Positions 5,291 through 52,380 of a stretch of DNA of 64,000 nucleotides are shown here, one piece after another. The notes beneath the pieces are model-generated. The model saw only the letters and a list, made by a program, of their open reading frames with translations. It was not told where the DNA came from and searched no databases. The stretch covers positions 157-64,156 of the forward strand of contig CAVSGX010000003.1 of NCBI GenBank assembly GCA_963727715.1, read 5' to 3'. The stretch is from an uncultured bacterium (GTDB lineage: Bacteria > Patescibacteriota > Minisyncoccia > Phycocordibacterales > DATDWN01). Numbering within the stretch: position 1 is the first letter of the stretch; the number at the start of each line of letters is the position of its first letter. The position numbers were made by a program, and so were the translations under genes.

Positions 5291-6505
5291 ATGCGAAAGT
5301 TTTGGGTGACCCTATTTGTTTCTGTCATCTTGGCTGTGCTTGCCTACGGGTTGAGCGAGTTAAGCGACGGAGAAGTATCATTCTTGGCGATGTTTTTCTG
5401 CGAAGTTGTGATCTGCGCAGTATGCACGATTAGCTTCTGGAAACTCGCCGAACACGATATCATTTTTGGTTTCTTCTCGAGTAACCAAATTGCTATTGTA
5501 GAATCTGGAGAAAAGCCGGTCAAACTGATCGGTATACCAACAGAAGGAAAGTCCATCCAAGGACTCAAAGTCCTGTCAGGTGAACAGAAACCAAACTGGT
5601 GGAATCCTTTTGAGATATGGTTCAACATGTTCTTCATTGGTCTGCCATGGAGAAGAATAAAGAGATTTATCCTCATCCATGAAAGATTCAGCAAAGAAGA
5701 ATTACCAAGGGGTGCCTCGCCGACAAAGTATATTGTTGCGGATCCAGAAGACGAACATCCGGCGGAACGATTTTTGCTCGGTAATTCTTTGCACGATTTC
5801 ATCGTGCCAGATATTGAGCTTGCCGAGGGATACTCGGCGCACATCAAAGTAACCGGCGAACTGGATCTGGAAGATCCGATTATCTCCGTCTACAGGAGAG
5901 CTGGAAGTTCACCTCACAAAGATGGTCTCTACAAGGTTAACTTCTACGGGCCAATCGGCGATGTGGTCAACACAGCCGTCGACAATGCCTGCAGAGGCAT
6001 GGGCTACTACCCGTCTGATCCAAAACCGGTAGACCCGAACATACCTCAACCAATTCTCTCAGACAAAGAATCACTCAATAAGAATGGTTTTTTGGCTGCA
6101 GACAAGTCCAGCCAAGGCACCCTATGCCAGATTATTTTGAAAGAAATCGCGGCCTCGGTGCGCCAACTCAGCGGGTATAATGTGATAAGAGTCTTTATCC
6201 CTGGGTGGGATCTGACAACAGACGAACAACGAGATCTCGTGCAACAGCGTGAACGTGCCAGAATCACTCGCGATGTCAAGCTTCTGGAAGCTGAAGGTGA
6301 GAATGCTGGGACGGTCAATCTCATGGCAGCCATGAAGAAGGAGTACCCAAATGCCACTGACTCTGAGTTGGCTCAGAGAGTGACTGAATTGGAAATCTCC
6401 AGAAACATTGCCGGGATGCCAAACCTTACGGTCTACGCTCCTGGTGCTAATTTAGCGGTCAGTACGCCACAACAGAGTGGCAACAAGAAAGGATCTGGCA
6501 AATGA
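5291..6505 (+). CDS. SPFH/band-7-like (stomatin/flotillin/HflKC-like) membrane protein
   Basis: 404 aa. Two N-terminal TM helices, then a soluble domain whose C-terminal part (VIRVFIPGWDLTTDEQRDLVQQRERARITRDVKLLEAEGENAG) resembles the SPFH coiled-coil region (..ERE.RA.I..AEGE..A). Stop overlaps the next start (ATGA). Confidence 0.45.
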   Translation: MRKFWVTLFVSVILAVLAYGLSELSDGEVSFLAMFFCEVVICAVCTISFWKLAEHDIIFGFFSSNQIAIVESGEKPVKLIGIPTEGKSIQGLKVLSGEQKPNWWNPFEIWFNMFFIGLPWRRIKRFILIHERFSKEELPRGASPTKYIVADPEDEHPAERFLLGNSLHDFIVPDIELAEGYSAHIKVTGELDLEDPIISVYRRAGSSPHKDGLYKVNFYGPIGDVVNTAVDNACRGMGYYPSDPKPVDPNIPQPILSDKESLNKNGFLAADKSSQGTLCQIILKEIAASVRQLSGYNVIRVFIPGWDLTTDEQRDLVQQRERARITRDVKLLEAEGENAGTVNLMAAMKKEYPNATDSELAQRVTELEISRNIAGMPNLTVYAPGANLAVSTPQQSGNKKGSGK

Positions 6506-7632
6506 GCTTCGTTAATTGGGTTATTCTTATAGCTCTGGCCTCACTCTTTTTTGGCCTCTGCTACCTGTTGAACTGGTTGCGTGGAAAGTTCCTAGTAGTT
6601 GACACCTACTGGAAAAACGGCACAATTTGGGCTTTTCTGGCTGTCATACTTGTCCACATGGGCATCTGGTGGCTGTGGCCCGAATTCTGGCATGAGTGGT
6701 GGTCAAGGTCAGGTTTTTTGTTCTTCCAGATTCTGGTTGGGGTAGGATTCTACCTCAGACTCGGTTTGAAAGACAAGAAATTCCTAAGGCACCTTGGGCT
6801 TATCCTTATCGCACTTGGGGTGGTTGGCATCGGCTGGAACATTTACTCCGCTTTGCGGGTTCATCGTTCGGCCACAGAAGTGATGTCACCTGCGGAATTA
6901 AAAAACCTCCCGAAACAGAATTGGGACGGAGAACAAAAGGTGACCAGGTTCTGGAAGAACCATCTGCCGGAAGAGTCTGCTCTGGCGATATTGCGAATCG
7001 TCAGACGTCAGTCCGGCTTCAACCAGTTTGGCGAAAATGGTAAGCCATACCGCAATCCGGCAAACCCGTCAAAGGTCGGGGTGATGCAGATTGACGACTC
7101 GATTTGGTCCGAAAGGGCTCGCGAGCTCGAATATAATCTGTACGAGATGGATGGGAACCTCCGCTTCGCGCTCTGGCTCTACAAGGAGCAAGGGTTTGCG
7201 CCCTGGCTCGGGAATAGTCAGACCACGCTTGATTCAGCCAAACAGGTTTCGTCGGCTATTGGTGATGCTTTCAGTAGCAAACCGAAGGCCGACGAGCGAC
7301 AGGCCAAAAGAATTCGGGACTTTCTGGACAGAAACAGGACAGATAATCCCGAGGTCTTGACGCGGTTGATTCGGACCATAGAAATGTGGCCGACAATGAT
7401 CGGACCACGTTCTCGGGTTGTCAACATTCCGGCCACCGGCTGGAGTGAAAAGATCGCAATCGGAAAAACTCCGATGCGAATCCGTCCGTCAGAAGACATG
7501 GTCGTGTCAGACGACCATGGCAGAGAATATCCAATCTCTGTCATCAATCCGAACTGGAACTTTCCCCCTACCGAATGGGTGAGATACCGGTCGGTCTCTG
7601 GCAAGCCAGCCATCGTGCTGGTCAGCCCATGA
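6502..7632 (+). CDS. Polytopic membrane protein (4 TM) with C-terminal SLT/lysozyme-like domain; catalytic Glu replaced by Gln
   Basis: 376 aa. Segment ALAILRIVRRQSGFNQFGENG..PSKVGVMQIDDSIW..EYNLYEMDGNLRFALWLY matches SLT family-1 motifs (ES-GFNP, GLMQI, Y..DP.NI) but has RRQSGFN where RQESGFN is expected. Confidence 0.45.
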   Translation: MSFVNWVILIALASLFFGLCYLLNWLRGKFLVVDTYWKNGTIWAFLAVILVHMGIWWLWPEFWHEWWSRSGFLFFQILVGVGFYLRLGLKDKKFLRHLGLILIALGVVGIGWNIYSALRVHRSATEVMSPAELKNLPKQNWDGEQKVTRFWKNHLPEESALAILRIVRRQSGFNQFGENGKPYRNPANPSKVGVMQIDDSIWSERARELEYNLYEMDGNLRFALWLYKEQGFAPWLGNSQTTLDSAKQVSSAIGDAFSSKPKADERQAKRIRDFLDRNRTDNPEVLTRLIRTIEMWPTMIGPRSRVVNIPATGWSEKIAIGKTPMRIRPSEDMVVSDDHGREYPISVINPNWNFPPTEWVRYRSVSGKPAIVLVSP

Positions 7633-7652: not shown

Positions 7653-7690
7653 AGTCGCGTGGCCAAATGGTTGCGCGACTTTTCTTTTAC
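7653..7690 (+). terminator. Rho-independent terminator after the SLT-like gene
   Basis: 7-bp stem AGTCGCG/CGCGACT, 12-nt loop, followed by TTTTCTTTT. Confidence 0.5.
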
Positions 7691-7764: not shown

Positions 7765-8049
7765 TTACAACTTTGTTCCTATAAATGGCACATTGGTGGT
7801 ATTGGGAGTTACGCCGAAGGTATTCAAGACAAAACTGATGATACCATAAACCGAAAACATTATGAGCATTCCAACCAGTCCCCAAATGATAGCGTCCCGC
7901 GCCTCCACCTTCTTGCTATCCGAAGGTTCTAATCTCAAATATTCCACTATGCCATAGATGAAATAAACAGTGGCGACGGCGAAAAGAAGCAGAATAATCG
8001 GATTCAAAATCTCGGCGTCTACATTTTGTAGAAACTTGGTAATGTCCAT
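7765..8049 (-). CDS. VirB2/TrbC-like (T4SS-type) pilin paralog A (no obvious signal peptide)
   Basis: 94 aa; two hydrophobic helices separated by the loop YLRLEPSDSKKVEARDAIIWG; same architecture as the five paralogs downstream. Confidence 0.5.
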   Translation of the reverse strand: MDITKFLQNVDAEILNPIILLLFAVATVYFIYGIVEYLRLEPSDSKKVEARDAIIWGLVGMLIMFSVYGIISFVLNTFGVTPNTTNVPFIGTKL

Positions 8050-8064
8050 TTATGTGAGAATGAA

Positions 8065-8421
8065 TTATAGACCGGTAACTGTAGGAGGCTGAAGACCATT
8101 GTTGTCGCTCTTGACTCCGAATATTCCTGTCAGCCAACTGACCAAACCAAACAGAGCGGCCATAACAGCTATGGCAACAACACCCCAGATCATAATACCG
8201 CGTCCTTCCTTGGCTTTTTCCGGGTCGCCGGCAGATCCGATGTATTTTATTAAACCCCAGAAGAAATAAATAATAGCCAATCCGAACATTATAGGAATCA
8301 AATCCTTAACAATTGTGCCGAGACCAGTAACCCAACTCTGTATATAACTAGTACCGGTTTGATTTTGAGCTAAGGCCAAAACTGGTCCAAAAGCTAACAA
8401 ACCATAAAAAATTCTTTTCAT
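8065..8421 (-). CDS. VirB2/TrbC-like pilin paralog B
   Basis: Start trimmed to MKRIFYG. Signal peptide MKRIFYGLLAFGPVLALA, then Q; two TM helices; loop IGSAGDPEKAKEGRGIMIWG. Confidence 0.55.
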   Translation of the reverse strand: MKRIFYGLLAFGPVLALAQNQTGTSYIQSWVTGLGTIVKDLIPIMFGLAIIYFFWGLIKYIGSAGDPEKAKEGRGIMIWGVVAIAVMAALFGLVSWLTGIFGVKSDNNGLQPPTVTGL

Positions 8422-8563
8422 TATTTTTTTGTTATTAATAATTAATAAAATCTTAAAACTAATAGTAAACGCGCTAAACACCGACCACGCTTTTACGAAT
8501 ATACCTATATTATATATCAAAAAAGCCAAAAAACAAGGGGCTGTGGATAAAAATTCACCATAA

Positions 8564-8986
8564 TCAATTTCCAGTACAAGGCCCTCCTTCATCTCCGACA
8601 TTGCCCGAAACAAAGCAAGGTGTGCTACCGCCGGATACACCATTACCGGAGCCGGAGGCGTTAGATTGCTGTGTACCAACCACCAAGCTTCCGACCAGAG
8701 AAATTACACCAGCCAGAGAAAATATGACGGCTATGGCTACAATCCCCCACATTATTTTCAATCTGCCTTCTCTGCGTGCTTCCTCCTCTCCGGAATGCAA
8801 AATGAACTGTCCGACACCCCAGAAAAAGTAAACCACGGCCAAACCGGCCATAACAGGCAGTATACTGCCGACGATTTTGCCTGTGGATGTCAGTAAATCT
8901 TTAACCCCGTTTGAATTGGCGGCCGAGGAAACTGCCGGCAAGAACAAGCAAAACGACAGGATAATTGGATACAATTTTCTTTTCAT
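8564..8986 (-). CDS. VirB2/TrbC-like pilin paralog C with Gly/Ser-rich Cys-containing C-terminal tail
   Basis: 140 aa; signal peptide; two TM helices; loop HSGEEEARREGRLKIMWG; C-terminus GSGNGVSGGSTPCFVSGNVGDEGGPC. Confidence 0.55.
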   Translation of the reverse strand: MKRKLYPIILSFCLFLPAVSSAANSNGVKDLLTSTGKIVGSILPVMAGLAVVYFFWGVGQFILHSGEEEARREGRLKIMWGIVAIAVIFSLAGVISLVGSLVVGTQQSNASGSGNGVSGGSTPCFVSGNVGDEGGPCTGN

Positions 8987-9003
8987 ATTTTATAAATAAT
9001 AAA

Positions 9004-9354
9004 TTACGGCAAAAGCGAACCACTCTCACTCGGAGAGGAAAAACCAAAAGTGTTGGTGGCTATGCCGATGATGGCCACATAGGAAGTTAGAATGAACAGA
9101 ACCAAAATGCCCCACATCATATATTCTTTGCCTGTTTTCAATAATTTTTCGTCTCCGGCTGAAATGACATATTTGGTCAATCCCCAAATGAAAACAATAA
9201 AAGCCAGAGCGAAAAGTATCGGTATGAGAAGATTAATCAAACTAATAACATAAGAGACGATGTCGCTAAATGAGCTGTTTTCCAAACTGAAACCTTGAGC
9301 CGAAACAAGCAAAGGAGAGAAATATAAAATTGGCAAAATAAAATATTTTTTCAT
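9004..9354 (-). CDS. VirB2/TrbC-like pilin paralog D
   Basis: Start trimmed to MKKYFILPIL (overlaps the stop of paralog E, ATGA). Signal peptide ends VSA then Q; loop ISAGDEKLLKTGKEYMMWG. Confidence 0.55.
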   Translation of the reverse strand: MKKYFILPILYFSPLLVSAQGFSLENSSFSDIVSYVISLINLLIPILFALAFIVFIWGLTKYVISAGDEKLLKTGKEYMMWGILVLFILTSYVAIIGIATNTFGFSSPSESGSLLP

Positions 9355-9740
9355 TTGGTTAAAAGGGTTTTGATAGTGGCTTGCAGAACTTCCGATATGC
9401 CCGTAGCGGCCAAAATAACACCGACTCCGATAAGTGACCAAAGAAGATTCTGTTTAGCATCTTTTATTTCTTGAGGATTGCCTTTGGCCTGGACAAACTT
9501 AAAACCGGCCCAGATGACCCAGACAACGCAAGCCACTCCGGCAATGGGCATAATGATGTTAGTTAAGATGGCTGTCAACAAAGTCAAAAGAGTGCAGTCA
9601 CCGCCAGCCCCACCACAATTGAAAGGATTCGGGATGCTGACGGATTGATTAAAATCTTGGGCGTGCGTTGCAAACGGTAAAATGATAAGGAACAAAACCA
9701 CAACCCCGAACAAATATCTTGCGTATTTTTTTCTTTTCAT
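9351..9740 (-). CDS. VirB2/TrbC-like pilin paralog E
   Basis: 129 aa; signal peptide ends THA then Q; CGGAGGDC disulfide-like motif; two TM helices; loop QAKGNPQEIKDAKQNLLWS. Confidence 0.55.
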   Translation of the reverse strand: MKRKKYARYLFGVVVLFLIILPFATHAQDFNQSVSIPNPFNCGGAGGDCTLLTLLTAILTNIIMPIAGVACVVWVIWAGFKFVQAKGNPQEIKDAKQNLLWSLIGVGVILAATGISEVLQATIKTLLTK

Positions 9741-9759
9741 ATTTTTAAAATTGTTTAAA

Positions 9760-10194
9760 TTACTTCAAAAGTTGTGGGACACCAGTACCGGCTGTTAAAG
9801 TGGTCATAATCAGATTTATTACCAACCAAGCTCCCAAAACCCAGAAAATACCCCAAAGAACTTTGACAAACATATCGTTAGCCTCTTTTCGTTTGTCCGG
9901 TTTACCTCCAGATGTCAGGTAAATATAACCGGCATAGACAATAACGATCACAGAAAAAGGTAGAGCAACACTAACCACGGCAAAGTTTGTGACTTGTTTA
10001 ACTGCATCAATCAATTGGGCAAAAGTGCTACAAGGACCACCGCCTGGACAAACATAAGATATTCCACTTGGTTTTCCTAGACCCTGCTGGTCTTGAGCTG
10101 TGATCGAAGTCGTAGGTATCAAAACAAAAAGAACAAAAATAACTACCAAAATTTTTTCACCAATATTCTTCCTTGTTCCTTTTAGAAATTTCAT
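9760..10194 (-). CDS. VirB2/TrbC-like pilin paralog F
   Basis: 144 aa; signal peptide ends ITA then Q; CPGGGPC motif; two TM helices; loop TSGGKPDKRKEANDMFVKVLWG. Confidence 0.55.
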   Translation of the reverse strand: MKFLKGTRKNIGEKILVVIFVLFVLIPTTSITAQDQQGLGKPSGISYVCPGGGPCSTFAQLIDAVKQVTNFAVVSVALPFSVIVIVYAGYIYLTSGGKPDKRKEANDMFVKVLWGIFWVLGAWLVINLIMTTLTAGTGVPQLLK

Positions 10195-10198
10195 GCTT

Positions 10199-11488
10199 TT
10201 ATTTTAACGCATCATTTAAATTTTGACTAGCTGAGTTTACAGAGTCGCTGATTTGGGACTGGCCACTGGTTATGGAATTTATCATACTGCCGAAGATACT
10301 GGACGTTTGCGAAGGATCCGGATCAACAAACGATCTTGCGATCAAGGCCGAATTGTAGAAAACCACGCGATATGGATCTGTCGGCAGATTGGACAAAAGA
10401 TCTCGACGGGCTGACGGCAGATTCGTTTGAGCTTCCAGAGCTGTCAGGGCGGCCGGCTCGGTCAGTGAAGTGACCAAAGTAAAAGCTCCTGCCACAGATT
10501 TGGATTGTTTGACAATGGCTGTGGCATAAATATGAGCGAAATCTATCTTATTTGTCCCACCGCGAATCTGCGGAATATCCGTGACATCAAAGTTTAAATT
10601 CGGATTTTTCTGTTGGACGGGAAAAAGTTCGCTGGCTTCTCCGACATACATAGCCAGATTGCCGGAAAGGAAAAAGTTTAAAGAAGAAGGTAAAGCTCTG
10701 TTCCAACTGTAATAAGCTGAAGTTGGGTTGGAAAATTGGGTGTAAAAATTCAAAGCCGACTCTGCCGGAGAAATCGCTTGGCCGGAATTTTCGTCCAAAA
10801 ACGAAGAGTATTTTTTTTGAGTGGAGTCGTAGCTTACAATCGGCGTGCCGGCTTGCAGAAAAAGTAAAGACAAAATTTCTTTGGCGTTTGTCACATTATC
10901 CCATTCACCAAAAGAGATAGCGCTTTGGGAGATATCGGCCGAGCTGTCTTTGATTGTGATTTTCCCGGTCAAGTTGTAAAGCTCGTCCCAATATTTCGGC
11001 GGGGTGGCGACCAGAGAGTTCCCAAAAAGATCGCGATTCCAGTACAAAACCAACGGATCAACATAAAGAGGCAAAGCGGTAACACCATCTGGCGTCAAAA
11101 ACATTTCAGCTTCTTGGGTGAAAGTATCTTTGAATGTTCTTTCGGAATAACTCGTGTAAGGTATAACTAAAAGTCTGTTTCGGTTTTTGTAGAGAGAATC
11201 TTCGCGCATGACCACCACATCCGGCCCGGTGCCGTCTGCCAAAGCTTCTATAAAATCGGTATCAAAACTGCTCTGATTTTTTTGGATATAATTTACATTG
11301 ATGTATTTATTTTTACTGACAGAAGATGCTTTGTATAAAGTAGTCCATTCGTCTTGAGACATAACCCCCCAAACTTTCAGATTGTACGTTGTTTGTCCGG
11401 CGCCGGCTTTGTACATAGCAAAAAGTATCACTCCAACGACGATGCTGACCGAGAAAATGGCAATGACGACGATTTTAAAATTACTCAT
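10199..11488 (-). CDS. Membrane-anchored extracellular solute-binding-protein-like (SBP_bac_1/MalE-like fold) protein
   Basis: 429 aa; N-terminal TM anchor; motifs GPDVVVMREDSL, LYWNRDLFG, KYWDELYNLTGK typical of family-1 ABC substrate-binding proteins; no permease or ATPase genes adjacent. Confidence 0.5.
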   Translation of the reverse strand: MSNFKIVVIAIFSVSIVVGVILFAMYKAGAGQTTYNLKVWGVMSQDEWTTLYKASSVSKNKYINVNYIQKNQSSFDTDFIEALADGTGPDVVVMREDSLYKNRNRLLVIPYTSYSERTFKDTFTQEAEMFLTPDGVTALPLYVDPLVLYWNRDLFGNSLVATPPKYWDELYNLTGKITIKDSSADISQSAISFGEWDNVTNAKEILSLLFLQAGTPIVSYDSTQKKYSSFLDENSGQAISPAESALNFYTQFSNPTSAYYSWNRALPSSLNFFLSGNLAMYVGEASELFPVQQKNPNLNFDVTDIPQIRGGTNKIDFAHIYATAIVKQSKSVAGAFTLVTSLTEPAALTALEAQTNLPSARRDLLSNLPTDPYRVVFYNSALIARSFVDPDPSQTSSIFGSMINSITSGQSQISDSVNSASQNLNDALK

Positions 11489-12012
11489 AATTTCTTGAAA
11501 ATTAAACCGTAATGATGAGGACCAGCAACAATTTCTCTATCCAAATGAAAACCGTTTTTTTCAAACATTTCTTGAGCGTCTTTTTTTAGAAAAACTTTTT
11601 CCGGCGCTGGGCCGATACCGCCGAAAGAATCGTTCCAATCCACAACCAAAACTCGTCCATTCGGTCTAAGAATCCGTTTGATTTCATCCAAAACAGCCTG
11701 CTTTTGTTCCAACTGAAAAAGAATGTTAGTCAAAAACACCAAATCAATAGAAGCGTCTGCCAAATGTGTGCCAGACGGTTTTTCAACGTCCCCCCAAATA
11801 ATTTCGACATTGTACAAACCCTGCGAAATGGCTTGGTTTCTTATTTTAACCAACAGGTCTTTTTGAACATCAATAGCATAAACTCGGCCGGTGGCGATCA
11901 AAGCTCTGGCCGCGGCGATAGTGTAAAAACCGGAACCGGCGCCGAAATCGGCGATTTCCATTCCAGCCTGTATACCGCAACTTTCCATAATTTTTTGAGG
12001 GTCAGAGAACAT
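11485..12012 (-). CDS. Class I SAM-dependent methyltransferase
   Basis: Motif I IADFGAGSGFYTIAAARA; post-I acidic residue in YAIDVQ; start trimmed because the longer ORF runs into the palindromic repeat at 12060-12225. Confidence 0.7.
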   Translation of the reverse strand: MFSDPQKIMESCGIQAGMEIADFGAGSGFYTIAAARALIATGRVYAIDVQKDLLVKIRNQAISQGLYNVEIIWGDVEKPSGTHLADASIDLVFLTNILFQLEQKQAVLDEIKRILRPNGRVLVVDWNDSFGGIGPAPEKVFLKKDAQEMFEKNGFHLDREIVAGPHHYGLIFKKL

Positions 12013-12059
12013 ATCTATATTATAGTATGAAAATTTATAAATGAAAAGAAAAAAGTGGA

Positions 12060-12225
12060 CAAATCTCACATCATTTTTATTTTTTGGAGACGAAAGCTCG
12101 GCCAGCGCCGAGCTTTCTCGGTCCTCGCCTCGGATTTGTCAAGAGCCCTCGCAAAGCTCGGGTCATTGACAAAACCAGCTCCTCGCCTGCGGATGCTCCA
12201 AAAAATAAAAATGATGTGAGATTTG
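12060..12225. repeat. MITE-like element with 26-bp perfect terminal inverted repeats and a GC-rich core (family C)
   Basis: CAAATCTCACATCATTTTTATTTTTT at one end and its exact reverse complement at the other, flanking a GC-rich core with internal hairpins (GCTCGGCCAGCGCCGAGC). Confidence 0.6.
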
Positions 12226-12506
12226 TTAAGTTGTGATTTCAATATAAAAAATAAATTCCAATCAACACTTAAGTTTTTCGGGACAGTTTTTTCTTTTCAG
12301 GATTTTGTCTGGGGGTCAATCCTTGTAATCGATTTCTTTCGCAATCACTTATGAACTGAGCATTTGCCAAATGAATATTTTCATCTACCTTAGATCCGAG
12401 AACCCTCGCCTCATCGGCCAATCTCAATTCTCTCAATTCTTTCATCAAAGGATCATCATCTGAATGATCGCACGAATAGGACATATTGCCTCCGATAAGA
12501 AATATA

Positions 12507-14984
12507 CTACAAACAAATTAGAGATGCAATCGAATCCCCTTCTCGTAATTTCATTATCCGAACGCCTTGAGTCTGACGGCCGAGGGTTGGAATTTCTTTG
12601 ACGTCAACACGAATGACTTGCGATTTTTTGGAAATGGAGACGACTTCGGCGTCGCCGCCTTCAAAAACTTTGGCTGAAATAAGAATGCCTGTTTTGGACG
12701 TCACTTTGGCTGTTTTGATACCTGATCCGCCACGTTTCTGGATTTTGTACTCGTCAACATCTGTGCGCTTGCCGTAGCCGTTTTGAGAGATGACCATCAG
12801 CGTCGGCGTGTCCGATTCCTTGTGAATAACATCGGAAGAAATAACATAATCGCCTTTTTTCAAACGCATCCCACGCACACCCATTGAAGTTCGGCCTGTC
12901 TCGCGGATATCCGACTCGCGGAAATGAATGGCCTGACCTTTGGCCGTGACGATCATATTGGTATCGCCTTTGTGAACGAAGGAAGCTGAAATGAGTTCGT
13001 CGCCCGGATCCAGTGTGATGGCGATAATGCCGGAGATGCGCACATCGCTGAAGCTGGCCGCTTTGCATTTTTTGATTACACCCTGTTTGGTGACCATAAG
13101 AAGTGAGGCGTCGGATTTTTTAACTTCTTTCGGCATCGGCAAAATGGAAGTGATTTTCTCACCTTCGGAAAGTGGCAAAAAGTTTTGAACAGACTTGCCA
13201 CGCGTGGCCCTGCGACCCTCCGGAATGTCGTACATTTTGGTTTGGTAAGCTTTGCCACGATCGGTGAAGAACAAAAGGTCGCTGTGTGTGGAAGCGAGTA
13301 AAAGAGTCGTCACGAAGTCTTCCTCTTTGGTGTCCAGATCTACTACGCCGACTCCCCCGCGTTTTTGTTTGCGGAATTCATCTGGGTTGGTGCGTTTGAT
13401 ATAACCGCCGGCTGTCAGTACCAGCGCGTTTTCCTCGTCTGGCACTAAATCCTCGACAGACAAAACCTGCGCGCCACCTTTTATGATGCGGGTGCATCTG
13501 TCGTCGCCGTATTTTTCTTTGATGGCCTTGGACTCATCTTTGATGATTGACAAAATCTTTTTAGCGCTGGCCAAAATGGTTTTCAACTCCTCAATCAAAA
13601 GTTCCACCGCTTTGAGTTCATCTTCCACTTTTTTGCGTTCCAGTCCGGCCAAACGTTGCAATTTCATTTCCAAAATAGCCGTGGCTTGAATAGTCGAAAA
13701 TTTGAATTCTTTCATCAAGTTTCGATGAGCCTCCATTGTATCTTTTGAAGCGCGAATAAGTTTGACGATAGCGTCAATGTGGTCCAGAGCTTTTTTCAGG
13801 CCGAGCAAAATATGCTCGCGCTCCAAAGCTTTTTTCAAATCAAATTCTGTCCGACGACGGATGATTTCTTTGCGGTGTTTTATAAATTCCTCCAGGATGT
13901 CCTTGAGCGACAGCGTCTGTGGCACGCCGTCAACCAGTGCGACCATATTGTAGTGGAAAGGATCTTCCAGTTGAGTGTGTTTGTATAAAAAGTTCAGAAC
14001 TGTCTGTGGGTGAGCCGTGCCTTTGAGATCAATAACAATGCGGATGTCGTTGGTTGATTCGTCTCGGATATCTTTAACACCCTCCAGTTTTTTGTTACGG
14101 ATTAAATCAACGATTTTTACTATCAACTCTGATTTGTTGACGCGGAAAGGAATGGAGGTGATGACGATTTGAAAATTACCAGCTTTGTTCTCCACAATTT
14201 CGGCCGCTCCTCTAATCACCACCCCGCCTTTGCCTGTGGCGTAAGCGTGAGCGATGTCTTTTTGTCCGAAAGCGATAACCGGACCACAACCGAGCGGGAA
14301 ATCCGGACCTTTGACGAACTGCAGAAGATCCTCTGTGGTGGCGTCAGGATTGTCCGCCAAATGTATCGTGGCGTCCATCACTTCGTTTAGATTGTGCGGG
14401 GGGATGTTCGTAGCCATGCCGACGGCGATACCGAGTGTGCCGTTTAAAAGAAGGTTTGGCACGGCGGATGGCAGAACAGTCGGCTCTTTTTTGGTACCGT
14501 CATAATTCGGCACAAAATTAACTGTTTCTTTTTCTATGTCGCGTAAAATTTCGGCGCAGATTTTTGACATCTTGGCCTCGGTGTAACGCATGGCTGCCGG
14601 TGGGTCGCCATCAATGTTCCCGAAGTTACCTTGGCCGATAACCAGTGGATAGCGCATGGTGAAAGGTTGAGCCATTTTGACCAGAGAATCGTAAATGGCC
14701 ACATCGCCATGCGGGTGGTAGTTGCCCATGGTGTCGGAGACAGGCACAGCCGACTTGCGTGTTTTGCCACCAGCGGTCAGGTTTGCCTCGTTCATTGCAA
14801 AAAGGATGCGACGATGCACCGGCTTGAGGCCATCTCGTACATTCGGCAAGGCGCGGTCGGTGATGACCGACATAGCGTAGTCTATGAAAGACTCTTTCAT
14901 TTCGGTCGTGATTTCACGCTGGATCACACTTACTCTCTGTGGTAATTCACCACCCTCAGCAATTTTTGTGTCGTTTTTAGCCAT
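12507..14984 (-). CDS. gyrA: DNA gyrase subunit A
   Basis: 825 aa; [25 protein letters not shown]; active-site Tyr region; C-terminal beta-pinwheel repeats. Confidence 0.92.
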
Positions 14985-15048
14985 AAATTATAAAGGTATT
15001 ATAGCATATTGTCGTTTAAAATTCAAAGCGAATTTTGTGAATTCGGGA

Positions 15049-15273
15049 CACAAAACCACACACAATTATTTTTCAGAGCACGGATAAATTTCTGCTGAAA
15101 TTTTCCTTTCGCTCAGCGATCAAGAAAACAATCAACTCTGATTCGTAGCTCTCCGCAAACAGCCTCGGCCGCCCCTTCTTTCAGAGGGGTCGCTGCTACG
15201 AGCTTACTTCATCCTCACTGTTGTTTTCTAATTGCTTCTGCAGTCTCTGAAGAATAATTGTGTGTGGTTTTGT
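15049..15273. repeat. MITE-like palindromic repeat, family A, copy 1
   Basis: TIR ACAAAACCACACACAATTATT..TCAGAG at both ends; conserved core CACGGATA..CTCGCTCAGCGATCAAGAAAACAATC..CGTAGC..GTTGTTTTCTAATTGC..GCAGTCTCTGAA with internal long inverted repeat (CAAGAAAACAA / TTGTTTTCT). Confidence 0.65.
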
Positions 15274-15299
15274 TAGTGCCAGATTCGAGTACGAAAAAA

Positions 15300-15922
15300 C
15301 TCCCATCTGCGTAATTGCAGACGAGAGTTGTGTGTGGAGGGGGGCGACTACTTATTCATTGCTAAGTTCGCAGTGTCTGCGAGCTTGAAGCTTTGTAACG
15401 TTCATCACCCCACTCTCCCTTGGTTTTGAAAGACATTTTTAATTCCCTTCAGCAGGCCTACGTTAGTTCGGCCAGATATCAGGAATCTACTAGTGCCCTT
15501 CTGGGTGGCCAAATGTCACCCGTATCGAGATTTTGGGTCAATCGGTGACCCGGTCCGGATTGGTAACTTTTAAGTTACCGACGCATCTAAATTCCCGAGT
15601 AACGCCCCGGGAAGAGGGTCACCCGCCCGGGATCCTAACTCGAACAAATTAAGGGGCGGGGCCCAGTGTCATTTCTTGTATTCCTGCCCGAGGAGATATC
15701 CGTCTGCGTTCATCACGCAAGTTTGGTAGGTTTTGCCGTACCTTTACCGGCCTCTTTTCGGGTGCGGGGGCTAGATACCCTCCTTTGGGCGCTAATTTTT
15801 AGGTGTAGCAGCCCTCATCCCGATCATCGTGATCGGAACCGCCGAAGATTTTTCCATGTCTTCGGTCAGGATTGGGTCCTAGTTTCCTAGGCCCGGCCCG
15901 ATTTCAGACGAGTCAAAGGCAT
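15300..15922 (+). ncRNA. rnpB: GC-rich structured noncoding region with RNase P RNA-like motifs (candidate rnpB); boundaries uncertain
   Basis: No credible ORF and GC well above local background. Motifs: GGTCCGGATTGG (P4 5' strand-like), GAGTAACGCC (P8/P9 GGUAACGCC), GGGTGCGG (P11-like GGUGCGG), GGCCCGGCCCGATTT (P4 3' strand-like CCCGGCUUA); many local hairpins. Confidence 0.35.
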
Positions 15923-16956
15923 CCCCTAGCCACCTTTGAAGTAGGACAGTTAGAATTAATGCATTAGTCGAAAATTAATTTTAATTGTCATATGAAAAAC
16001 AAATATCATCATTTGTCTTTTGAAGAGAGGTTTTGTATTGAAAAGATGTATTGCGCCGGTTCGGCCATTCGCAAAATTGCCGAATTTCTCGGTCGGAGTG
16101 TCAACACTGTGAGCAGAGAAATACAAAAACACAGTGTTAATGGGGTGTATGAAGCGGAAAAAGCCAAGCAGAAAGTTTCAATGAAAAGATGGCGAGCCAA
16201 ACAGCAGTGTCTGAAAGTGGCGCTTGACCCGTTTCTCTGTCGATTCGTGGTGGAACGATTAACCAAGCCGTATCATTGGTCGCCGAAGCAGATTAGCGGG
16301 TATCTTGAATGTGAAATGGGTATCATCTGCTCGGCCAAAGCCATATACAAATTTGCCGAGTCGAGAGGTCTAAACCACCTGCTTTTTTGGGGTTGGAACA
16401 ATCACAAGGGTGGGAGAAAACGAAATCATTGGAAGCACATTCAGGATGGCAGGAAGTATATTGATGTCAGACCGGAGAGAAAAGGTCTAGGACACATTGA
16501 GCTCGATTTCATCGTTTCCAAAGACAGTTCGTGGGTACTTTTGGTTGCTGTGGATTGGCAAGCCAAAAGAACATGGGTCAGGAAACTGCCCAACAGAAAA
16601 CGCGACACTATTCGTGCCGCGCTTTCCCGTCTGTTCCATGGTGTTGAATTGAAGAGCATCACCACAGACAACGATATTGCATTCACCTGTTGGAAAGAGT
16701 TGGAAACTCTCCTGCAAGTGCCAATCTATTTTACACATCCATACCATTCTTGGGAAAAAGGTCTGGTGGAAAACACCAACAGATGGATCAGATGTTTTGT
16801 GCCTAAACGAAGAGATATTGAGTCAGTCACTGAGGAAGAATTGCAAGAAATACATTCCTTCCTAAACAACCGACCGAGAGAAGTGATTGGCTTCCGCGCG
16901 CCAATGAGTTATTATTCAAACATTAGTTCTGTCCTACTTGAGGGGTAATTGGAGGC
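15923..16956 (+). mobile_element. IS30-family insertion sequence, copy 1
   Basis: Boundaries taken from identity with the second copy at 36785-37830 (shared ends CCCCTAGCCACCTTTGAAGTAGGAC ... GTCCTACTTGAGGGGTAATTGGAGGC); single transposase ORF. Confidence 0.8.
15992..16948 (+). CDS. IS30-family DDE transposase
   Basis: 318 aa; N-terminal HTH; C-terminal DDE region (..DNDIAFTCW..E..) typical of IS30 transposases; about 99% identical to the copy at 36756-37751. Confidence 0.85.
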   Translation: MKNKYHHLSFEERFCIEKMYCAGSAIRKIAEFLGRSVNTVSREIQKHSVNGVYEAEKAKQKVSMKRWRAKQQCLKVALDPFLCRFVVERLTKPYHWSPKQISGYLECEMGIICSAKAIYKFAESRGLNHLLFWGWNNHKGGRKRNHWKHIQDGRKYIDVRPERKGLGHIELDFIVSKDSSWVLLVAVDWQAKRTWVRKLPNRKRDTIRAALSRLFHGVELKSITTDNDIAFTCWKELETLLQVPIYFTHPYHSWEKGLVENTNRWIRCFVPKRRDIESVTEEELQEIHSFLNNRPREVIGFRAPMSYYSNISSVLLEG

Positions 16957-21056: not shown

Positions 21057-21088
21057 AGTTTATTCAAATTCTCGGCTTCTTATAATTT

Positions 21089-21275
21089 TTTTGAAACATC
21101 GCGCAGGAAATTAGAAAACAACGACGAAGATGGAGTAAGCTCGGAGCAGTGACCCTCCTGAAAGAGAGGGCGACCTCAGCAGAGGTCGTTTGCGGAGAGC
21201 TACAAGTCGAGGAAGATTGTTTTCTTGATTTCCGAGCGTAGTAATTCGCCAGCAGGCGAATATACGTGTTTCAAA
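21089..21275. repeat. MITE-like repeat, family A, copy 3 (inverted relative to copy 1)
   Basis: Its reverse complement aligns almost base for base with the copy at 42129-42337. Confidence 0.6.
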
Positions 21276-23510: not shown

Positions 23511-25947
23511 TCAAGAGATGACAAAATTCAGGAGACGGTTTGGAATATGAATTATTTTTAGAACATTTTTGTCGGCAAGCCACTTATCCACACCGGGTAC
23601 TTTCCGAGCCATGGTCACAAGCTCGTCTTTGGACATATCGCGCGCCACCGTGATCTCTGCTCGGACTTTGCCGTTGACCTGAATGACCACACTGACTTCC
23701 CCGCTTTGCATTTTGGCTTTGTCAGCCTCCGGCCATTTCTCGGAAACCAAAAATGTTTTATGACCGAGATTGTGCCAAAGCTCATCGCTTATGTGCGGAG
23801 CGAACGGCGACAAAATTTTCAGAAAAATTTCAAAATATTTTTGTGGCACAGCCGACGCTTTTTCAAATTGGCCGATTAAAATCATCATAGCCGAAATAGC
23901 TGTATTGAAATGCATAATCTCAATATCACCCGAAACTTTTTTGACAGTTTGGTTTAAAAGTATTTCAAGATTTTTATTTTGACCGGCTTTTTCGGATATT
24001 TTCTCTTGCAATTTCCAAACTCGTTCCAAAAATCTTCGCGAACCGGAAATGCTATTTGTGTCCCAGTTGATGGCCTGATCAAATGGGCCCATAAACATTT
24101 CATAAACACGCAAAGTGTCGGCGCCATAAGTTTTAACAATGTCGTCCGGGTTGATAACATTGCCACGCGATTTGGACATCTTCTCGCCGTTCTCGGCCAA
24201 AATGAATCCGTGCGATGTGCGTTTTTTGTACGGCTCGCTTGTCGGCACCAGTCCGATATCAAACAAAAATTTGTTCCAAAATCGCGAGTACAAAAGATGC
24301 AGCGTAGTGTGTTCCATTCCGCCGTTGTACCAATCCACAGGCATCCAGTATTTCAGTTTTTTCATGTCGGCGAATTTTTTGAAATTTTTTGGATCAGCAG
24401 TAGCGCAGAAAATACCAACTGGATCCGGCCCAGTTTGGCATCGTATCCGTTTCGCGCTTGGCCTTGCCTCCACACTTTGGGCATTTGGTGTTGACCCATT
24501 TTGAAATGTTGGCCAGTGGCGACTCGCCGGTTTCTGTCGGCTGATATTTCTCCACTTTCGGCAATTTCAGTGGCAAATCTTTTTCCGGCATAGCAACCAA
24601 TCCACAATTTTCGCAATCCACAACCGGAATCGGCTCGCCCCAGTAGCGTTGTCGTGAAAAAACCCAATCGCGCAGTTTAAATGTTTCTGTCATTTTACCA
24701 CCTGCAAACTCGGTGATTTTTTTCTTGGCTTCTTCACTTTTCATTCCGTCAAATTTGCCGGAGTTGATCATTTTTCCTTCTCCAACATAAGCTTCTTTCA
24801 TTTCTTCCACATTATTTTCAGATGACACCACTTCTTTTATAGGCAAACCATATTTTTTTGCAAACAAAAAATCACGCTCATCATGGGCCGGCACAGCCAT
24901 AACCGCGCCCGTGCCATAGTCGGCCAAAACATAATCGGCAATCCAAACCGGCATTTCTTCGTTGTTTGCGGGATTAACCACCAAAACTCCATTCAATCTC
25001 ACACCCGGTTTTTTCCTTTCGTCGTTTGTCCGTTCAATCTGCGCCGTCTTTTTTGTCTGTTCAAGTATTTTTCGACTTCCGGCTAATTTTTGATTTCCTC
25101 TTTCCAACTTCTGTACCAAGTGATTTTCTGGTGCAACAACCAAATATGTCACACCAAACAAGGTATCCGGCTCGTGTGGTGAAAACTTTTACTTACATTT
25201 TGAAATTTGGATTTTGGATTTATTTGTCATTTGAAATTTGGATTTTGAAATTTATTTCCGCCCCTTCCGAACGCCCAATCCAGTTTCTCTGCTGTAATTT
25301 TTATTTTCTCCAAATAATCCACCGTATCCAAATCTTTGTCCAGACGGTCGGCGTATTTGGTAATGCGCAGCATCCACTGTTCCTTTTCGCGTTTCTCCAC
25401 CGGTGTGCCGCAGCGTTCACATTTGCCGTTCACCACTTCCTCGTTGGCCAGGCCGATTTTGTCTTTCGGACACCAGTTGATGGCGATTTTGCTTTTGTAA
25501 GCTAAATCGTGTTTAAAAAATTGCAGAAAAAGCCACTGCGTCCATTTATAATATTTCGGGTCAGTCGTGTTGATTTCGCGCGACCAATCAAAAGAAATTC
25601 CAAGATAGTTTTATTTGCCGGCGAAAATTTTCCGATATTTTTTTTGGTTACTTCGGCTGGTTGCACGCCGGTTTTGATGGCGTAATTTTCTGTCGGCAAA
25701 CCAAAAGCGTCCCAACCCATCGGATACAGCACATCGTAGCCTTCCATCCTGCGTTTGCGCGCGACGATATCAATCCGATGTATGGTCGTGGATGTCCGAC
25801 ATGCAAGCCATCGCCTGACGGGTATGGAAACTCCACCAGCGCGTAATATTTGGGTTTCTTTGAAAAATCTTCAGCCTGAAAAATTTTCTTTTTCTCCCAT
25901 TCTTTCTGCCATTTTTTTTCTATCGTTGAGTGATTGTACACTTTCAT
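23511..25947 (-). pseudogene. leuS: Leucyl-tRNA synthetase interrupted by at least 4 frameshifts (assembly errors or a pseudogene)
   Basis: Five consecutive ORF fragments (25648-26184 HIGH region HVGHP, 25502-25747 [11 protein letters not shown], 25227-25436, 24394-25161 editing domain, 23511-24473 KMSKS and anticodon-binding domain) are collinear with LeuS; breaks fall at homopolymers such as T8 near 25637. Confidence 0.8.
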
Positions 25948-30635: not shown

Positions 30636-30742
30636 ATTTAATATTTATTATTCAACTTATTTGCCATAACATTATACAACACCAAACCTTTATCGCCTCC
30701 GGTTTTTGTGGATAATAATTTGGAGTCCAGTCAAATTCTGAA

Positions 30743-36755: not shown

Positions 36756-37751
36756 TTAGGTGTATAATATAGGTAGGAGGTGAGGCCTCCCAATTACCCC
36801 CTCAAGTAGGACAGAACTAATGTTTGAATAATAACTCATTGGCGCGCGGAAGCCAATCACTTCTCTCGGTCGGTTGTTTAGGAAGGAATGTATTTCTTGC
36901 AATTCTTCCTCAGTGACTGACTCAATATCTCTTCGTTTAGGCACAAAACATCTGATCCATCTGTTGGTGTTTTCCACCAGACCTTTTTCCCAAGAATGGT
37001 ATGGATGTGTAAAATAGATTGGCACTTGCAGGAGAGTTTCCAACTCTTTCCAACAGGTGAATGCAATATCGTTGTCTGTGGTGATGCTCTTCAATTCAAC
37101 ACCATGGAACAGACGGGAAAGCGCGGCACGAATAGTGTCGCGTTTTCTGTTGGGCAGTTTCCTGACCCATGTTCTTTTGGCTTGCCAATCCACAGCAACC
37201 AAAAGTACCCACGAACTGTCTTTGGAAACGATGAAATCCAGCTCAATGTGTCCTAGACCTTTTCTCTCCGGTCTGACATCAATATACTTCCTGCCATCCT
37301 GAATGTGCTTCCAATGATTTCGTTTTCTCCCACCCTTGTGATTGTTCCAACCCCAAAAAAGCAGGTGGTTTAGATCTCTCGACTCGGCAAATTTGTATAT
37401 GGCTTTGGCCGAGCAGATGATACCCATTTCACATTCAAGATACCCGCTAATCTGCTTCGGCGACCAATGATACGGCTTGGTTAATCGTTCCACCACGAAT
37501 CGACAGAGAAACGGGTCAAGCGCCACTTTCAGACACTGCTGTTTGGCTCGCCATCTTTTCATTGAAACTTTCTGCTTGGCTTTTTCCGCTTCATACACCC
37601 CATTAACACTGTGTTTTTGTATTTCTCTGCTCACAGTGTTGACACTCCGACCGAGAAATTCGGCAATTTTGCGAATGGCCGAACCGGCGCAATACATCTT
37701 TTCAATACAAAACCTCTCTTCAAAAGACAAATGATGATATTTGTTTTTCAT
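36756..37751 (-). CDS. IS30-family DDE transposase (copy 2, C-terminally extended)
   Basis: 331 aa, identical to copy 1 except G115D and the extra C-terminal VIGRPHLLPILYT. Confidence 0.85.
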   Translation of the reverse strand: MKNKYHHLSFEERFCIEKMYCAGSAIRKIAEFLGRSVNTVSREIQKHSVNGVYEAEKAKQKVSMKRWRAKQQCLKVALDPFLCRFVVERLTKPYHWSPKQISGYLECEMGIICSAKAIYKFAESRDLNHLLFWGWNNHKGGRKRNHWKHIQDGRKYIDVRPERKGLGHIELDFIVSKDSSWVLLVAVDWQAKRTWVRKLPNRKRDTIRAALSRLFHGVELKSITTDNDIAFTCWKELETLLQVPIYFTHPYHSWEKGLVENTNRWIRCFVPKRRDIESVTEEELQEIHSFLNNRPREVIGFRAPMSYYSNISSVLLEGVIGRPHLLPILYT

Positions 37752-37830
37752 ATGACAATTAAAATTAATTTTCGACTAATGCATTAATTCTAACTGTCCT
37801 ACTTCAAAGGTGGCTAGGGGAGGGCTATGA
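36785..37830 (-). mobile_element. IS30-family insertion sequence, copy 2 (inverted relative to copy 1)
   Basis: Near-identical to 15923-16956 in reverse orientation; a 1-nt difference at the transposase stop extends the ORF by 13 codons into flanking DNA. Confidence 0.8.
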
Positions 37831-42128: not shown

Positions 42129-42337
42129 TTTGAATCATTTCTTAAAACACGCATATTCGCCTGCTGGCGAATTGCTACGCTCGTCAATCAAGAAAACAAT
42201 ATCCTTAATTCGTAGCCCTACGCAAACGACCTCTGTTGAGGCCGTCCTCTCTTTCAGGAGGGTCGCTGCTTCGGGTTTACTTCATTTTCGTCTTTGTTTT
42301 CTAATTGACTGCGCGATGTTTTAAAAAATGATTCAAA
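42129..42337. repeat. MITE-like repeat, family A, copy 4
   Basis: TIR TTTGAATCATTTCTTAAAACACGC / GCGCGATGTTTTAAAAAATGATTCAAA; conserved core (CAATCAAGAAAACAAT..CGTAGC..GTCTTTGTTTTCTAATTG). Confidence 0.65.
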
Positions 42338-45326: not shown

Positions 45327-46031
45327 TCAAAAATGTGTGCAGAAAGTTTTGCGGTGCAGGGGCGAAAGACCGTGAGCGGAAATGGCTAAGCGGTGTCTAG
45401 TCGTGCCATAACCTTTGTGAATTTCAAAGCCATACCGTGGGAATTTTTTGCCGGCGCGTGTCATTAGTGCGTCGCGCGAGACTTTGGCCAGAATGCTGGC
45501 CCAAGCGATAATTTTTTCTTTCTCATCGCCTTTTATTATCGTTTTTTGATTTTTGAACTCTGCTGGCGCTTTGAGTGAACCGTCCAAAAGCACTTGGCAA
45601 TTTTTTGGGTTCAGTTTCAATTTCTCAATCCCCTTTCCAACCGCTGTTTTGATGCAAAAAGAAAGTCCTTTTTTGTCGATGGTTTTGTTGGAGATGTGGA
45701 TAATTGAGTAGTTGAAAATTTCTTTCTCCCCAAGTCTCTCGCGAAAAACGCGTAAAATTTCTGCTGAAATTTTCGCTCTTTCTTGCCTGCCCGGCTCCGA
45801 GAGGTTTCCGCTCGAAACTTGGGTCAACAAAATTTTCAAATTACTCAAAAATTCGGCATATTTTTGACGAGAGATTGGAGAAAGTTTTTTGCTGTCGAGG
45901 CCTCGCGGTGGCAGATTTTTGTTTCTTTTCAGTTTTTTATAAAAATTTTCCTCGCAAACAACCACACAAACAGTCACAGGCCCAGCCAAAGGTCCTCTCC
46001 CGACTTCGTCAATACCAACTATATAATTCAT
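45327..46031 (-). CDS. rnhB: Ribonuclease HII
   Basis: GIDEVGRGPLAGPV active-site motif; 234 aa. Confidence 0.88.
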   Translation of the reverse strand: MNYIVGIDEVGRGPLAGPVTVCVVVCEENFYKKLKRNKNLPPRGLDSKKLSPISRQKYAEFLSNLKILLTQVSSGNLSEPGRQERAKISAEILRVFRERLGEKEIFNYSIIHISNKTIDKKGLSFCIKTAVGKGIEKLKLNPKNCQVLLDGSLKAPAEFKNQKTIIKGDEKEKIIAWASILAKVSRDALMTRAGKKFPRYGFEIHKGYGTTRHRLAISAHGLSPLHRKTFCTHF

Positions 46032-49400: not shown

Positions 49401-49662
49401 AACAGTCAAAGATAAGCAAGAAGTAGTTTTTGGCGGGATGATTGAAGAGATAAAACCGATTATGACCAAATCCGGAGACAAAATGGCTTTCATCAGGGTG
49501 GCTGACCTCTCCGGTTCAATTGAAACAGTGGCTTTTCCGAAAGTTTTGGCTGAATTTGTCGACATCCTCGCCCCCGAATCCTGCGTGGTCATCAAAGGAA
49601 CACTCTCTCTGCGCAACGGCGAAAAAAGCGTGTTGATGGAAAAGGTCAGGATGATGGAGTAA
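46469..49662 (+). pseudogene. dnaE: DNA polymerase III alpha subunit interrupted by at least 5 frameshifts (assembly errors or a pseudogene)
   Basis: Collinear fragments 46469-47179 (PHP domain), 47049-47636, 47614-47823, an unannotated stretch 47824-47951, 47952-48233, 48196-49662 (fingers, beta-binding, OB). One break reads CGTTTACGACAGC where ERYDSEVD needs CGTTACGAC, an extra T. Confidence 0.8.
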
Positions 49663-52128: not shown

Positions 52129-52380
52129 ATCGCCACGGGTTTAACAGATGTTTGGTTTGGAACGAGGAATCCTCAGCTCGGATTTCGTCGCTCCGGTTAT
52201 CATCAAAGAACTGCCTTGTTGCTAGCATTAGCCAGTCCCTTTCTTCCGAAAGAAGTAACTTTTCTAACGTTTATTAAAGCAAATTGGCAAGTCTTTGTCA
52301 ATTGTTTTCTTATCCACAGCTTTCTGATATGATAGGGCGACAAAAAGAAGTCAAATTAATCAACTAATAAATTTACAAAC

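Follow-up and report, generated by a model that had tools for sequence, protein, structure and literature searches.

The window analysed here is a 64,000-nucleotide stretch of contig CAVSGX010000003.1 (assembly GCA_963727715.1), from an uncultured bacterium of the Patescibacteriota, and is essentially the entire source contig (64,378 bp). Six consecutive small genes on its minus strand, at 7765-10194, encode proteins of 94-144 amino acids that we designate P6 to P1 in the order of transcription (Table 1); an original prediction, made from the letters of the window, had described these genes as a tandem array of pilin paralogues, with exactly these coordinates and lengths. The locus is a representative of a chromosomal operon conserved among the Paceibacteria (Parcubacteria, within the Patescibacteria or candidate phyla radiation), in which a gene for a solute-binding-protein (SBP) homologue is followed by the genes for six specialised pilins. 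Membership of the six proteins in the T4SS_pilin family is close to certain. At a probability of roughly 60%, we further favour the reading that the operon supplies the subunits of a pilus or conduit associated with a type IV secretion system (T4SS) whose ATPase is encoded elsewhere. Arrays of VirB2-like pilins are already known in Patescibacteria and the locus is not new in kind. What is new is the linkage of the array to the SBP, including gene fusions between the two, the fixed order of the paralogues, and a conserved internal block with a candidate promoter and a DnaA-box-like element.

The family assignment is based on curated profile models, read against gathering cut-offs of 26.6 bits for PF18895 (T4SS_pilin), 27.9 bits for PF04956 (TrbC/VirB2), and 40 bits for NF045849, a model of the "Mbov_0395 family pilin-like conjugal transfer protein" of Mycoplasma integrative and conjugative elements (ICEs). 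Five of the six pilins (P1, P2, P3, P5, and P6) pass the PF18895 cut-off, P1 (27.7) and P6 (26.7) by a bare margin. P5 is also above the cut-offs of the other two models, with 28.5 bits for PF04956, for which the other five are unreported at E ≤ 1, and 50.2 bits for NF045849, which is matched by all six, the other five scoring 15.9-31.1 bits and thus below its cut-off. P4 is a clear paralogue of the others, with 40% identity to P2 over 102 amino acids and 115 bits against a hidden Markov model (HMM) built from the array. Identity among the six paralogues is 21-42%; all are mutually homologous, with common non-hydrophobic motifs, and their similarity to the pilin family is far beyond chance. 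The original prediction had called them VirB2/TrbC-type pilins and had named holins and class II bacteriocins as the families to set against that call. The pilin models were matched and no holin or bacteriocin similarity was found in Pfam (E ≤ 1) or PHROGs (E ≤ 0.01), so the call stands.

The architecture of the proteins is that of a leader, two transmembrane (TM) helices and a short charged loop, except that P1 is leaderless and begins directly at a mature-type N-terminus. Hydropathy shows two hydrophobic segments after the leader position in each pilin, and an AlphaFold model of P5 (mean predicted local distance difference test, pLDDT, 81.7) has a leader helix at residues 3-25 and a hairpin formed by helices 51-84 and 89-128. 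Reading the cleavage sites (↓) off the sequence by the -3/-1 rule gives probable Sec-type leaders in five of the six, ending A↓Q in four (P2, P4, P5, and P6) and A↓A in P3. Two features had been ascribed to the whole array and are each found in five of its genes: the signal peptide, which P1 does not have, and a loop that ends in (I/M/L)(I/M/L)WG, for which P5 has LLWS instead. The Cys pairs that had been noted, CGGAGGDC in P5 and CPGGGPC in P6, are both present, and a third pair lies in the C-terminal tail of P3 (CFVSGNVGDEGGPC). The features of type IV pilins, a class III signal peptide (G↓F/M-T-L-x-E) and a single N-terminal hydrophobic helix, are absent; the TM helices number two, and no type IV pilin family is among the Pfam matches of the six proteins.

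The six genes are closely packed, with gaps, in the order of transcription from P6 to P1, of 19, -4 (an ATGA overlap of the P5 stop and P4 start), 17, 142, and 15 nt. Genes called independently on a public Logan contig of 6.4 kb with identical sequence had the same six product lengths. The P3 protein is on record from the Logan assembly only, with no NCBI or ENA gene call on the same contig; in the deposited metagenome-assembled genome (MAG), P3 may be un-annotated or called differently. The terminator hairpin that follows P1 has an RNA folding energy of -22.7 kcal/mol (z = -5.97), and none of 200 shuffled sequences was as stable. This hairpin and the one that ends the convergent plus-strand pair lie between the two directions of transcription.

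Conservation of the operon was assessed through the SBP. An alignment-based search of GTDB species representatives returned at least 548 relatives, where a scan of genome contigs with the single SBP protein had returned none, and the best 80 loci were examined. These 80 are named Zambryskibacteria, Paceibacterota, Parcubacteria, Taylorbacteria, and Wolfebacteria. Membership of the host itself in the Patescibacteria is indicated by its closest SBP and synteny relatives, which are MAGs named Zambryskibacteria, Paceibacterota, or Parcubacteria, and by a DUF5671 protein in the window. With the HMM of the array, pilin genes were found directly 3′ of the SBP gene, and only there, in 74 of the 80 loci; in the remaining six, the contig stops within ∼400 nt of the SBP. 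The arrays range from five to eight genes (six in 36 loci, seven in 17, and five in 11). Metagenomic orthologues of P5 (≤67% identity) are accompanied by the methyltransferase, the SBP, five to six PF18895 genes, and two convergent genes, and a tblastn search with P5 against 72,556 plasmids gave no match.

The order of the paralogues is also conserved. When the best match of each window paralogue was sought among the six-gene arrays, P6 fell at position 1 in all 35 arrays that gave a match, P5 at position 2 in 35 of 36, P2 at position 5 in 34 of 36, and P1 at position 6, the last, in 35 of 36, and the modal reciprocal order is P6-P5-P4-P3-P2-P1. Differences in size between relatives come from duplication or loss of the middle P3 and P2 types. 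The outer positions have features of their own: 35 of 36 position-1 orthologues contain at least two Cys residues, and the position-6 orthologues are 87-112 amino acids long, leaderless, and without an N-terminal Lys or Arg. The paralogues are ancient, ordered orthologue groups that persist across ∼74 species-level relatives. Mean identity to the relatives is 35-47% for the pilins (P1 being the highest of the six at 47%) and higher for the SBP (48%), the methyltransferase (57%), and GyrA (73%); the pilins do evolve faster than the neighbouring genes. The nearest orthologue of P5 has 67% protein identity and the other pilin orthologues compared have at most ∼60%; we expect synonymous sites among them to be saturated.

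The SBP is the constant partner of the array. Its gene, which the original prediction had recognised as SBP-like and which matches SBP_bac_8 (E 1.9e-15), stops 4 nt from the start of P6. The TM anchor of the SBP is not unusually conserved, at 0.55-0.59 compared with 0.34-0.75 elsewhere in the protein. In two related loci, L066 (9992-11674, plus strand, 560 amino acids) and L082 (3510-5216, plus strand, 568 amino acids), one in-frame open reading frame (ORF) encodes both the SBP and the position-1 pilin; the pilin leader is gone at the junction and the Cys pair is kept. These fusions are evidence of the Rosetta-stone type that the SBP and the pilin act together. In a third locus, L074, one array member (9747-16259, plus strand) encodes a protein of 2170 amino acids with the pilin domain at its C-terminus (residues 2061-2170), preceded by He_PIG (Ig), Big_9, cadherin, and PKD repeats, and looks like a pilin-anchored giant adhesin. 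In the SBP fusions and in the L074 protein alike, the binding domains are N-terminal of the hairpin, and VirB2 topology would therefore place them outside the cell. The window contains no gene for an ABC permease or ATPase that could serve the SBP, nor does one recur among ORFs of at least 400 amino acids in the flanks of the relatives.

Upstream of the SBP lies a methyltransferase gene, possibly the first gene of the transcription unit, with a 4-nt overlap between its stop and the SBP start. The enzyme may modify the pilins or the SBP, or may simply be syntenic. Its homologue is found 5′ of the SBP in 66 of the 80 related loci, and GyrA is encoded nearby in 71; in the window, gyrA is located farther upstream of the methyltransferase.

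Table 1. Features of the pilin operon and its convergent neighbours in the window (↓, predicted leader cleavage site).
Feature	Position	Strand	Details
P1, terminal leaderless pilin	7765-8049	minus	94 aa; PF18895 27.7 bits
P2, penultimate pilin	8065-8421	minus	118 aa; leader ALA↓QNQ, 0 Cys; PF18895 32.7 bits
P3, middle-position pilin	8564-8986	minus	140 aa; leader SSA↓ANS; C-terminal Gly/Ser tail; PF18895 33.5 bits
P4, position-3 pilin	9004-9354	minus	116 aa; leader VSA↓QGF; PF18895 18.4 bits
P5, position-2 pilin	9351-9740	minus	129 aa; leader THA↓QDF; CGGAGGDC; hairpin; PF18895 50.2 bits
P6, position-1 pilin	9760-10194	minus	144 aa; leader ITA↓QDQ; CPGGGPC; two TM helices; PF18895 26.7 bits
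SBP homologue, membrane-anchored	10199-11488	minus	429 aa, N-terminal TM helix; SBP_bac_8 E 1.9e-15
Class I S-adenosylmethionine (SAM)-dependent methyltransferase	11485-12069	minus	194 aa; Pfam Methyltransf_31/11/25
Internal intergenic region, candidate P2-P1 promoter	8422-8563	minus	conserved gap with box and hexamers
Terminator hairpin after P1	7713-7741	minus	13-bp stem, then U-rich tract
Terminator-like hairpin ending the plus-strand pair	7653-7680	plus	12-bp stem, 7 GC pairs, T tract
X376, polytopic membrane protein with C-terminal lysozyme-like domain	6502-7632	plus	positional-homologue profile E 2.4e-54
Y404, divergent SPFH/Band_7-family membrane protein	5291-6505	plus	positional-homologue profile E 1.7e-27

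The array is interrupted at a single conserved place. In the relatives, the median length of the gap 5′ of the last two genes is 101 nt, compared with 4-16 nt for the other gaps, and in the window this gap measures 142 nt. It contains a block that in the relatives reads TTATCCACA, 5-7 nt, (C)TTGT, 16-18 nt, TAnnAT, and in the window consists of TTATCCACA at 8542-8550, TTGTTT at 8531-8536, a 16-nt spacer, and TATAAT at 8509-8514. Of 66 arrays, 25 have an exact TTATCCACA and a further 27 have only matches with one mismatch. Counting exact and one-mismatch boxes together, 43 are exactly two genes away from the end of the array; in the flanks of the relatives, there are only 14 exact copies in 951 kb. 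TTATCCACA is the canonical DnaA-box 9-mer. A simple promoter scan, which performed no better than on its own shuffles, raised no flag on this conserved block, and so the internal promoter is proposed from conservation. We infer that P2 and P1 have a conserved internal promoter and that DnaA may bind to its TTATCCACA box. Rfam gave no match within the operon and, outside it, only a transfer RNA. The window as a whole contains five copies of TTATCCACA, compared with 0.42 expected, at 8542-8550 (minus), 52310-52318 (plus), 30707-30715 (minus), 23584-23592 (plus), and 45695-45703 (minus); one copy is 62 nt 5′ of the ftsZ start and another is 71 nt 5′ of an ORF of 137 amino acids.

The T4SS-associated pilus or conduit has to be weighed against a number of observations, and those that follow all count against it. 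P4, at 18.4 bits, falls below the PF18895 cut-off. A sequence profile of the pilins matched no solved pilin in the PDB, and a Foldseek search with the P5 model returned generic helical hairpins, the T-pilus VirB2 (8exh_A) appearing at rank 49 with E 4.6 and a target-normalised template-modelling score of 0.50, although comparison with solved structures is uninformative for so small a hairpin. The lysozyme-like neighbour X376, which is described below, has Gln170 in the catalytic column that holds Glu in 38 of 52 homologues. To our knowledge, a filament has never been seen for any Patescibacteria VirB2 homologue, and we know of no described T4SS in which an SBP, here the constant partner, has a place. 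VirB4, VirD4, and VirB6 are absent from the 64-kb contig, and none of them was found within 10 kb of the array in any of the 80 related loci, so that the link to a T4SS comes from family homology and from other lineages.

The original prediction had reported that VirB4 and VirD4 are missing from the window, as we confirm, and had offered a secretion machinery encoded elsewhere as one explanation. This agrees with three of the relatives that have the same operon, L016 (GW2011_GWA2_40_14), L026 (C7867-006), and L065 (Zambryskibacteria RIFOXYC1_FULL_39_10), which are listed as Paceibacteria with VirB4 present (PMC12102498, Table S1). In these relatives, then, the ATPase exists and is encoded elsewhere. 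Separation of pilins from virB4 is also common more widely: in 1,948 assemblies with both VirB2-like pilins and VirB4, the pilin is near virB4 in only 1,135 (PMC12102498).

The main rival is a T4SS-independent envelope module, in which the SBP and six two-TM proteins form a capture or uptake device or a scaffold and the VirB2 fold is re-used without VirB4. The distance from VirB4 in all 80 loci would be expected of such a module, as would an SBP that is always adjacent to the pilins, is fused to one in two genomes, and has no ABC permease or ATPase partner in the window or recurring in the flanks (its partner may therefore be the pilins themselves), and a gene for an SPFH scaffold protein that is a constant neighbour. 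Against this, the same family is found inside the essential T4SS cluster of Saccharibacteria, all three relatives that could be checked are VirB4-positive, and the distance is not unusual, given that the pilin is remote from virB4 in ∼42% of the assemblies with both. The giant adhesin N-terminus of L074 also suits a displayed filament better than a transporter. On balance, we consider an independent module unlikely.

The array could also be a cassette for antigenic or host-range variation, a function that has been suggested for Patescibacteria arrays (PMC12102498), with interchangeable major pilins under diversifying selection. Low paralogue identity (21-42%), variable N-terminal ectodomains, a number of middle genes that differs among relatives (arrays of 5-8), and pilins that are less conserved (35-47%) than the SBP, the methyltransferase, and GyrA are what such a cassette would show. 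However, each position has its own orthologue group and the order is kept in ∼74 species-level genomes, the positions have specific features (the Cys pair at position 1 in 35 of 36, the leaderless last pilin), and no repeats or recombination substrates were found inside the array. The fixed order and the position-specific features argue against a variation cassette and fit subunits that are specialised and non-redundant, much as major and minor pilins are. A variation cassette is therefore improbable, and the diversifying selection that had been raised for the paralogues finds no support, as they are ancient, ordered orthologue groups.

That the six are no pilins at all, but holins, class II bacteriocin or immunity proteins or generic peptides that match the HMM by hydrophobicity, is highly improbable and already largely refuted: small two-TM proteins with P1 and P6 scores near the cut-off and generic hairpins in the fold search would allow it, but there is no holin or bacteriocin match in Pfam or PHROGs, P5 passes three independent curated pilin models, the six are mutually homologous and have motifs in common that are not hydrophobic, and the Sec leaders, housekeeping context, and deep conservation are unlike lysis or bacteriocin cassettes.

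Under the T4SS-associated reading, five of the pilins would enter the membrane by way of Sec and lose their leader to signal peptidase I, and the leaderless P1 would insert directly. Each pilin is predicted to sit in the membrane with its N-terminus out, two TM helices, and a short cytoplasmic loop, from where a VirB4-based T4SS encoded elsewhere would extract and polymerise the pilins into a pilus or conduit in which several types of pilin are combined. The binding modules on the outside would then be the variable N-terminal ectodomains of P6 and P5, with their Cys bridges, and the SBP that is associated with P6. P2 and P1, with additional transcription from the putative conserved internal promoter, may provide the bulk of the structure. 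Of the convergent neighbours, the lysozyme-like protein is a candidate helper for passage through the wall and the SPFH protein one for membrane scaffolding.

VirB2-like arrays in Patescibacteria have been published, which leaves no support for the suggestion in the original prediction of an undescribed type of appendage. One survey applied PF18895, PF04956, and related profiles to 3,035 Patescibacteria genomes; 383 of the assemblies contained VirB2 arrays, 441 in all, which had 2-11 genes and were most abundant in Microgenomatia and Saccharimonadia. Identity between the paralogues averaged 25% and reached at most 54% (PMC12102498). By the definition of that survey, at least two pilin genes of low paralogue identity that are in tandem or have one gene between them, the six contiguous genes of the window (21-42%) form an array. 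The series of pilins in the T4SS cluster of Southlakia epibionticum is essential (PMC10633639), and consists of six VirB2-like pilins that are conserved in structure and divergent in sequence, for which a conduit for uptake from the host has been speculated (PMC12857230). In Paceibacteria that parasitise methanogens, T4SS pilins are among the highly expressed genes (PMC10936435). The Patescibacteria cell envelope has been treated as monoderm (PMC12857230). The arrays of S. epibionticum ML1 (in the T4SS cluster SEML1_0006-0019) and of TM7x (the "Sec-secreted array") likewise consist of tandem, same-strand, small, divergent genes of PF18895; six copies is also the number in S. epibionticum, and a chromosomal location and the lack of a relaxase context are in common. 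Compared with these, the array described here, like those of the 80 Paceibacteria relatives, is outside a T4SS cluster, follows an SBP, has a fixed order, and contains the internal block with TTATCCACA and its putative promoter. The SBP partner, the gyrA linkage, the fixed paralogue order, and the internal promoter block are unmentioned in the main text of the survey (PMC12102498), and a targeted, limited literature search found nothing on a link between an SBP and pilin arrays.

Similar proteins are known farther afield. The VirB2/TrbC/TraA pilins of Gram-negative bacteria (T-pilus and F-pilus) also have a signal peptide, a two-helix hairpin, and a short charged loop. They are usually encoded by a single gene beside virB3 and virB4 and are cyclised or acetylated, whereas the operon here has six paralogues and no adjacent T4SS genes. 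The NF045849 proteins come from Mycoplasma, wall-less monoderms whose ICEs contain VirB4 homologues, and all six pilins match their model; the Mycoplasma proteins are encoded by single, ICE-borne genes, in contrast to a chromosomal six-gene operon with five of six products below the model cut-off. Systems of the MPF-FATA class lack VirB2 homologues (PMC12102498), and this, together with the NF045849 matches, raises the possibility that the pilins of Patescibacteria might share ancestry with a component of Tenericutes ICEs. Several divergent virB2 copies in tandem are also found in Bartonella, Anaplasma, and Rickettsia, where they are read as antigenic or host-range variation of pathogens, whereas the copies here are ancient, ordered orthologue groups.

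Type IV pili, with their sets of major and minor pilins, and the archaeal "bindosome", for which a pilin-type pathway assembles sugar-binding proteins, would resemble this operon in logic only, through specialised subunits in a fixed order and the coupling of an SBP to a filament. They are not homologous to it, having a G↓F(T/S)LxE leader and a single helix with a globular head, compared with a leader of the signal-peptidase-I type and a two-TM hairpin. A more specific version of this logic, in which an SBP-bearing, VirB2-type filament or platform captures host solutes in a "bindosome-like" manner, possibly independently of VirB4, and its bulk subunits are tied to DnaA and the cell cycle through TTATCCACA, is speculative and, in our estimate, rather unlikely.

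The two plus-strand genes that converge on the array are outside its operon, Y404 being located upstream of X376 on the same strand. Opposite-strand genes of both types are regular neighbours of the array, following it in 58 of 60 loci for the X type and in 53 of 55 for the Y type, and neither X376 nor Y404 has a Pfam match of its own. The original prediction had named an SPFH protein here; Band_7 is matched by 30 of 48 positional homologues of Y404, which bears this out for the family, and not by the window copy itself. The neighbouring gene had been described as SLT-like. As a homologue search with X376 gave two usable sequences, a profile of its C-terminal domain was built from positional homologues instead. 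This domain has the consensus ES.F.QF...G..QIN...W, and its profile (A5) matches C-type lysozymes in the PDB, the best being 1gd6_A (E 3e-07), while X376 has no match to Pfam SLT models and one of 57 family members has a weak one (E 0.0046). By sequence, the X family is in the lysozyme-like superfamily, as the description implied, but is closest to the C-type (animal-type, GH22) lysozymes, and X376 itself has Gln170 for the catalytic Glu. A VirB1-like role in wall remodelling is plausible for the X family and doubtful for X376 itself.

The window ORFs of at least 300 amino acids are all housekeeping genes or insertion sequence (IS) elements, and include IF-2, GyrA, SMC, RseP, an aminoacyl-tRNA synthetase fragment, YchF, PBP2, MreB/C, FtsA/Z, RF, AddAB-like proteins, and an IS30-like element. 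An extra 1.4 kb of left flank contains DUF6390 and a beta-lactamase-like gene. Each window protein that was checked is the sole member of its own 90% cluster or has no full-length relative. The IS30-like element (HTH_38 and rve transposase) is present in two inverted copies of 1033 nt that are 100% identical (15913-16945 and 36798-37830), and the ∼20 kb that they bracket could represent a composite element or serve as a substrate for inversion. In 58 relatives, homologues of the gene at 63514-63918 are no more than 10 kb from the SBP gene, which the IS30-like pair may explain. A pair of inverted repeats of 127 nt (85% complementary) is located in distant intergenic regions at 21087-21213 and 42202-42328. 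Housekeeping genes are split into adjacent or overlapping ORFs at 23511-25161, 46469-49662, and 59938-62489, the pieces being of a class I aminoacyl-tRNA synthetase, DnaE (its C-terminal half alone at 48196-49662), and a UvrD/AddA-like protein; these could be frameshifts, pseudogenes, or errors of MAG assembly.

A large part of bacterial diversity belongs to the Patescibacteria, which live off other cells, and no system of this kind other than their T4SS with its pilin array, in S. epibionticum, has been shown to be essential for growth. For the Paceibacteria, the largest class, the operon described here points to a set of about six specialised pilins and not to a variation cassette, and it shows that the outer N-terminus of a pilin can carry what look like giant adhesins. 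The obligatory SBP partner is in keeping with a role of the apparatus in uptake, on which others have speculated in print.

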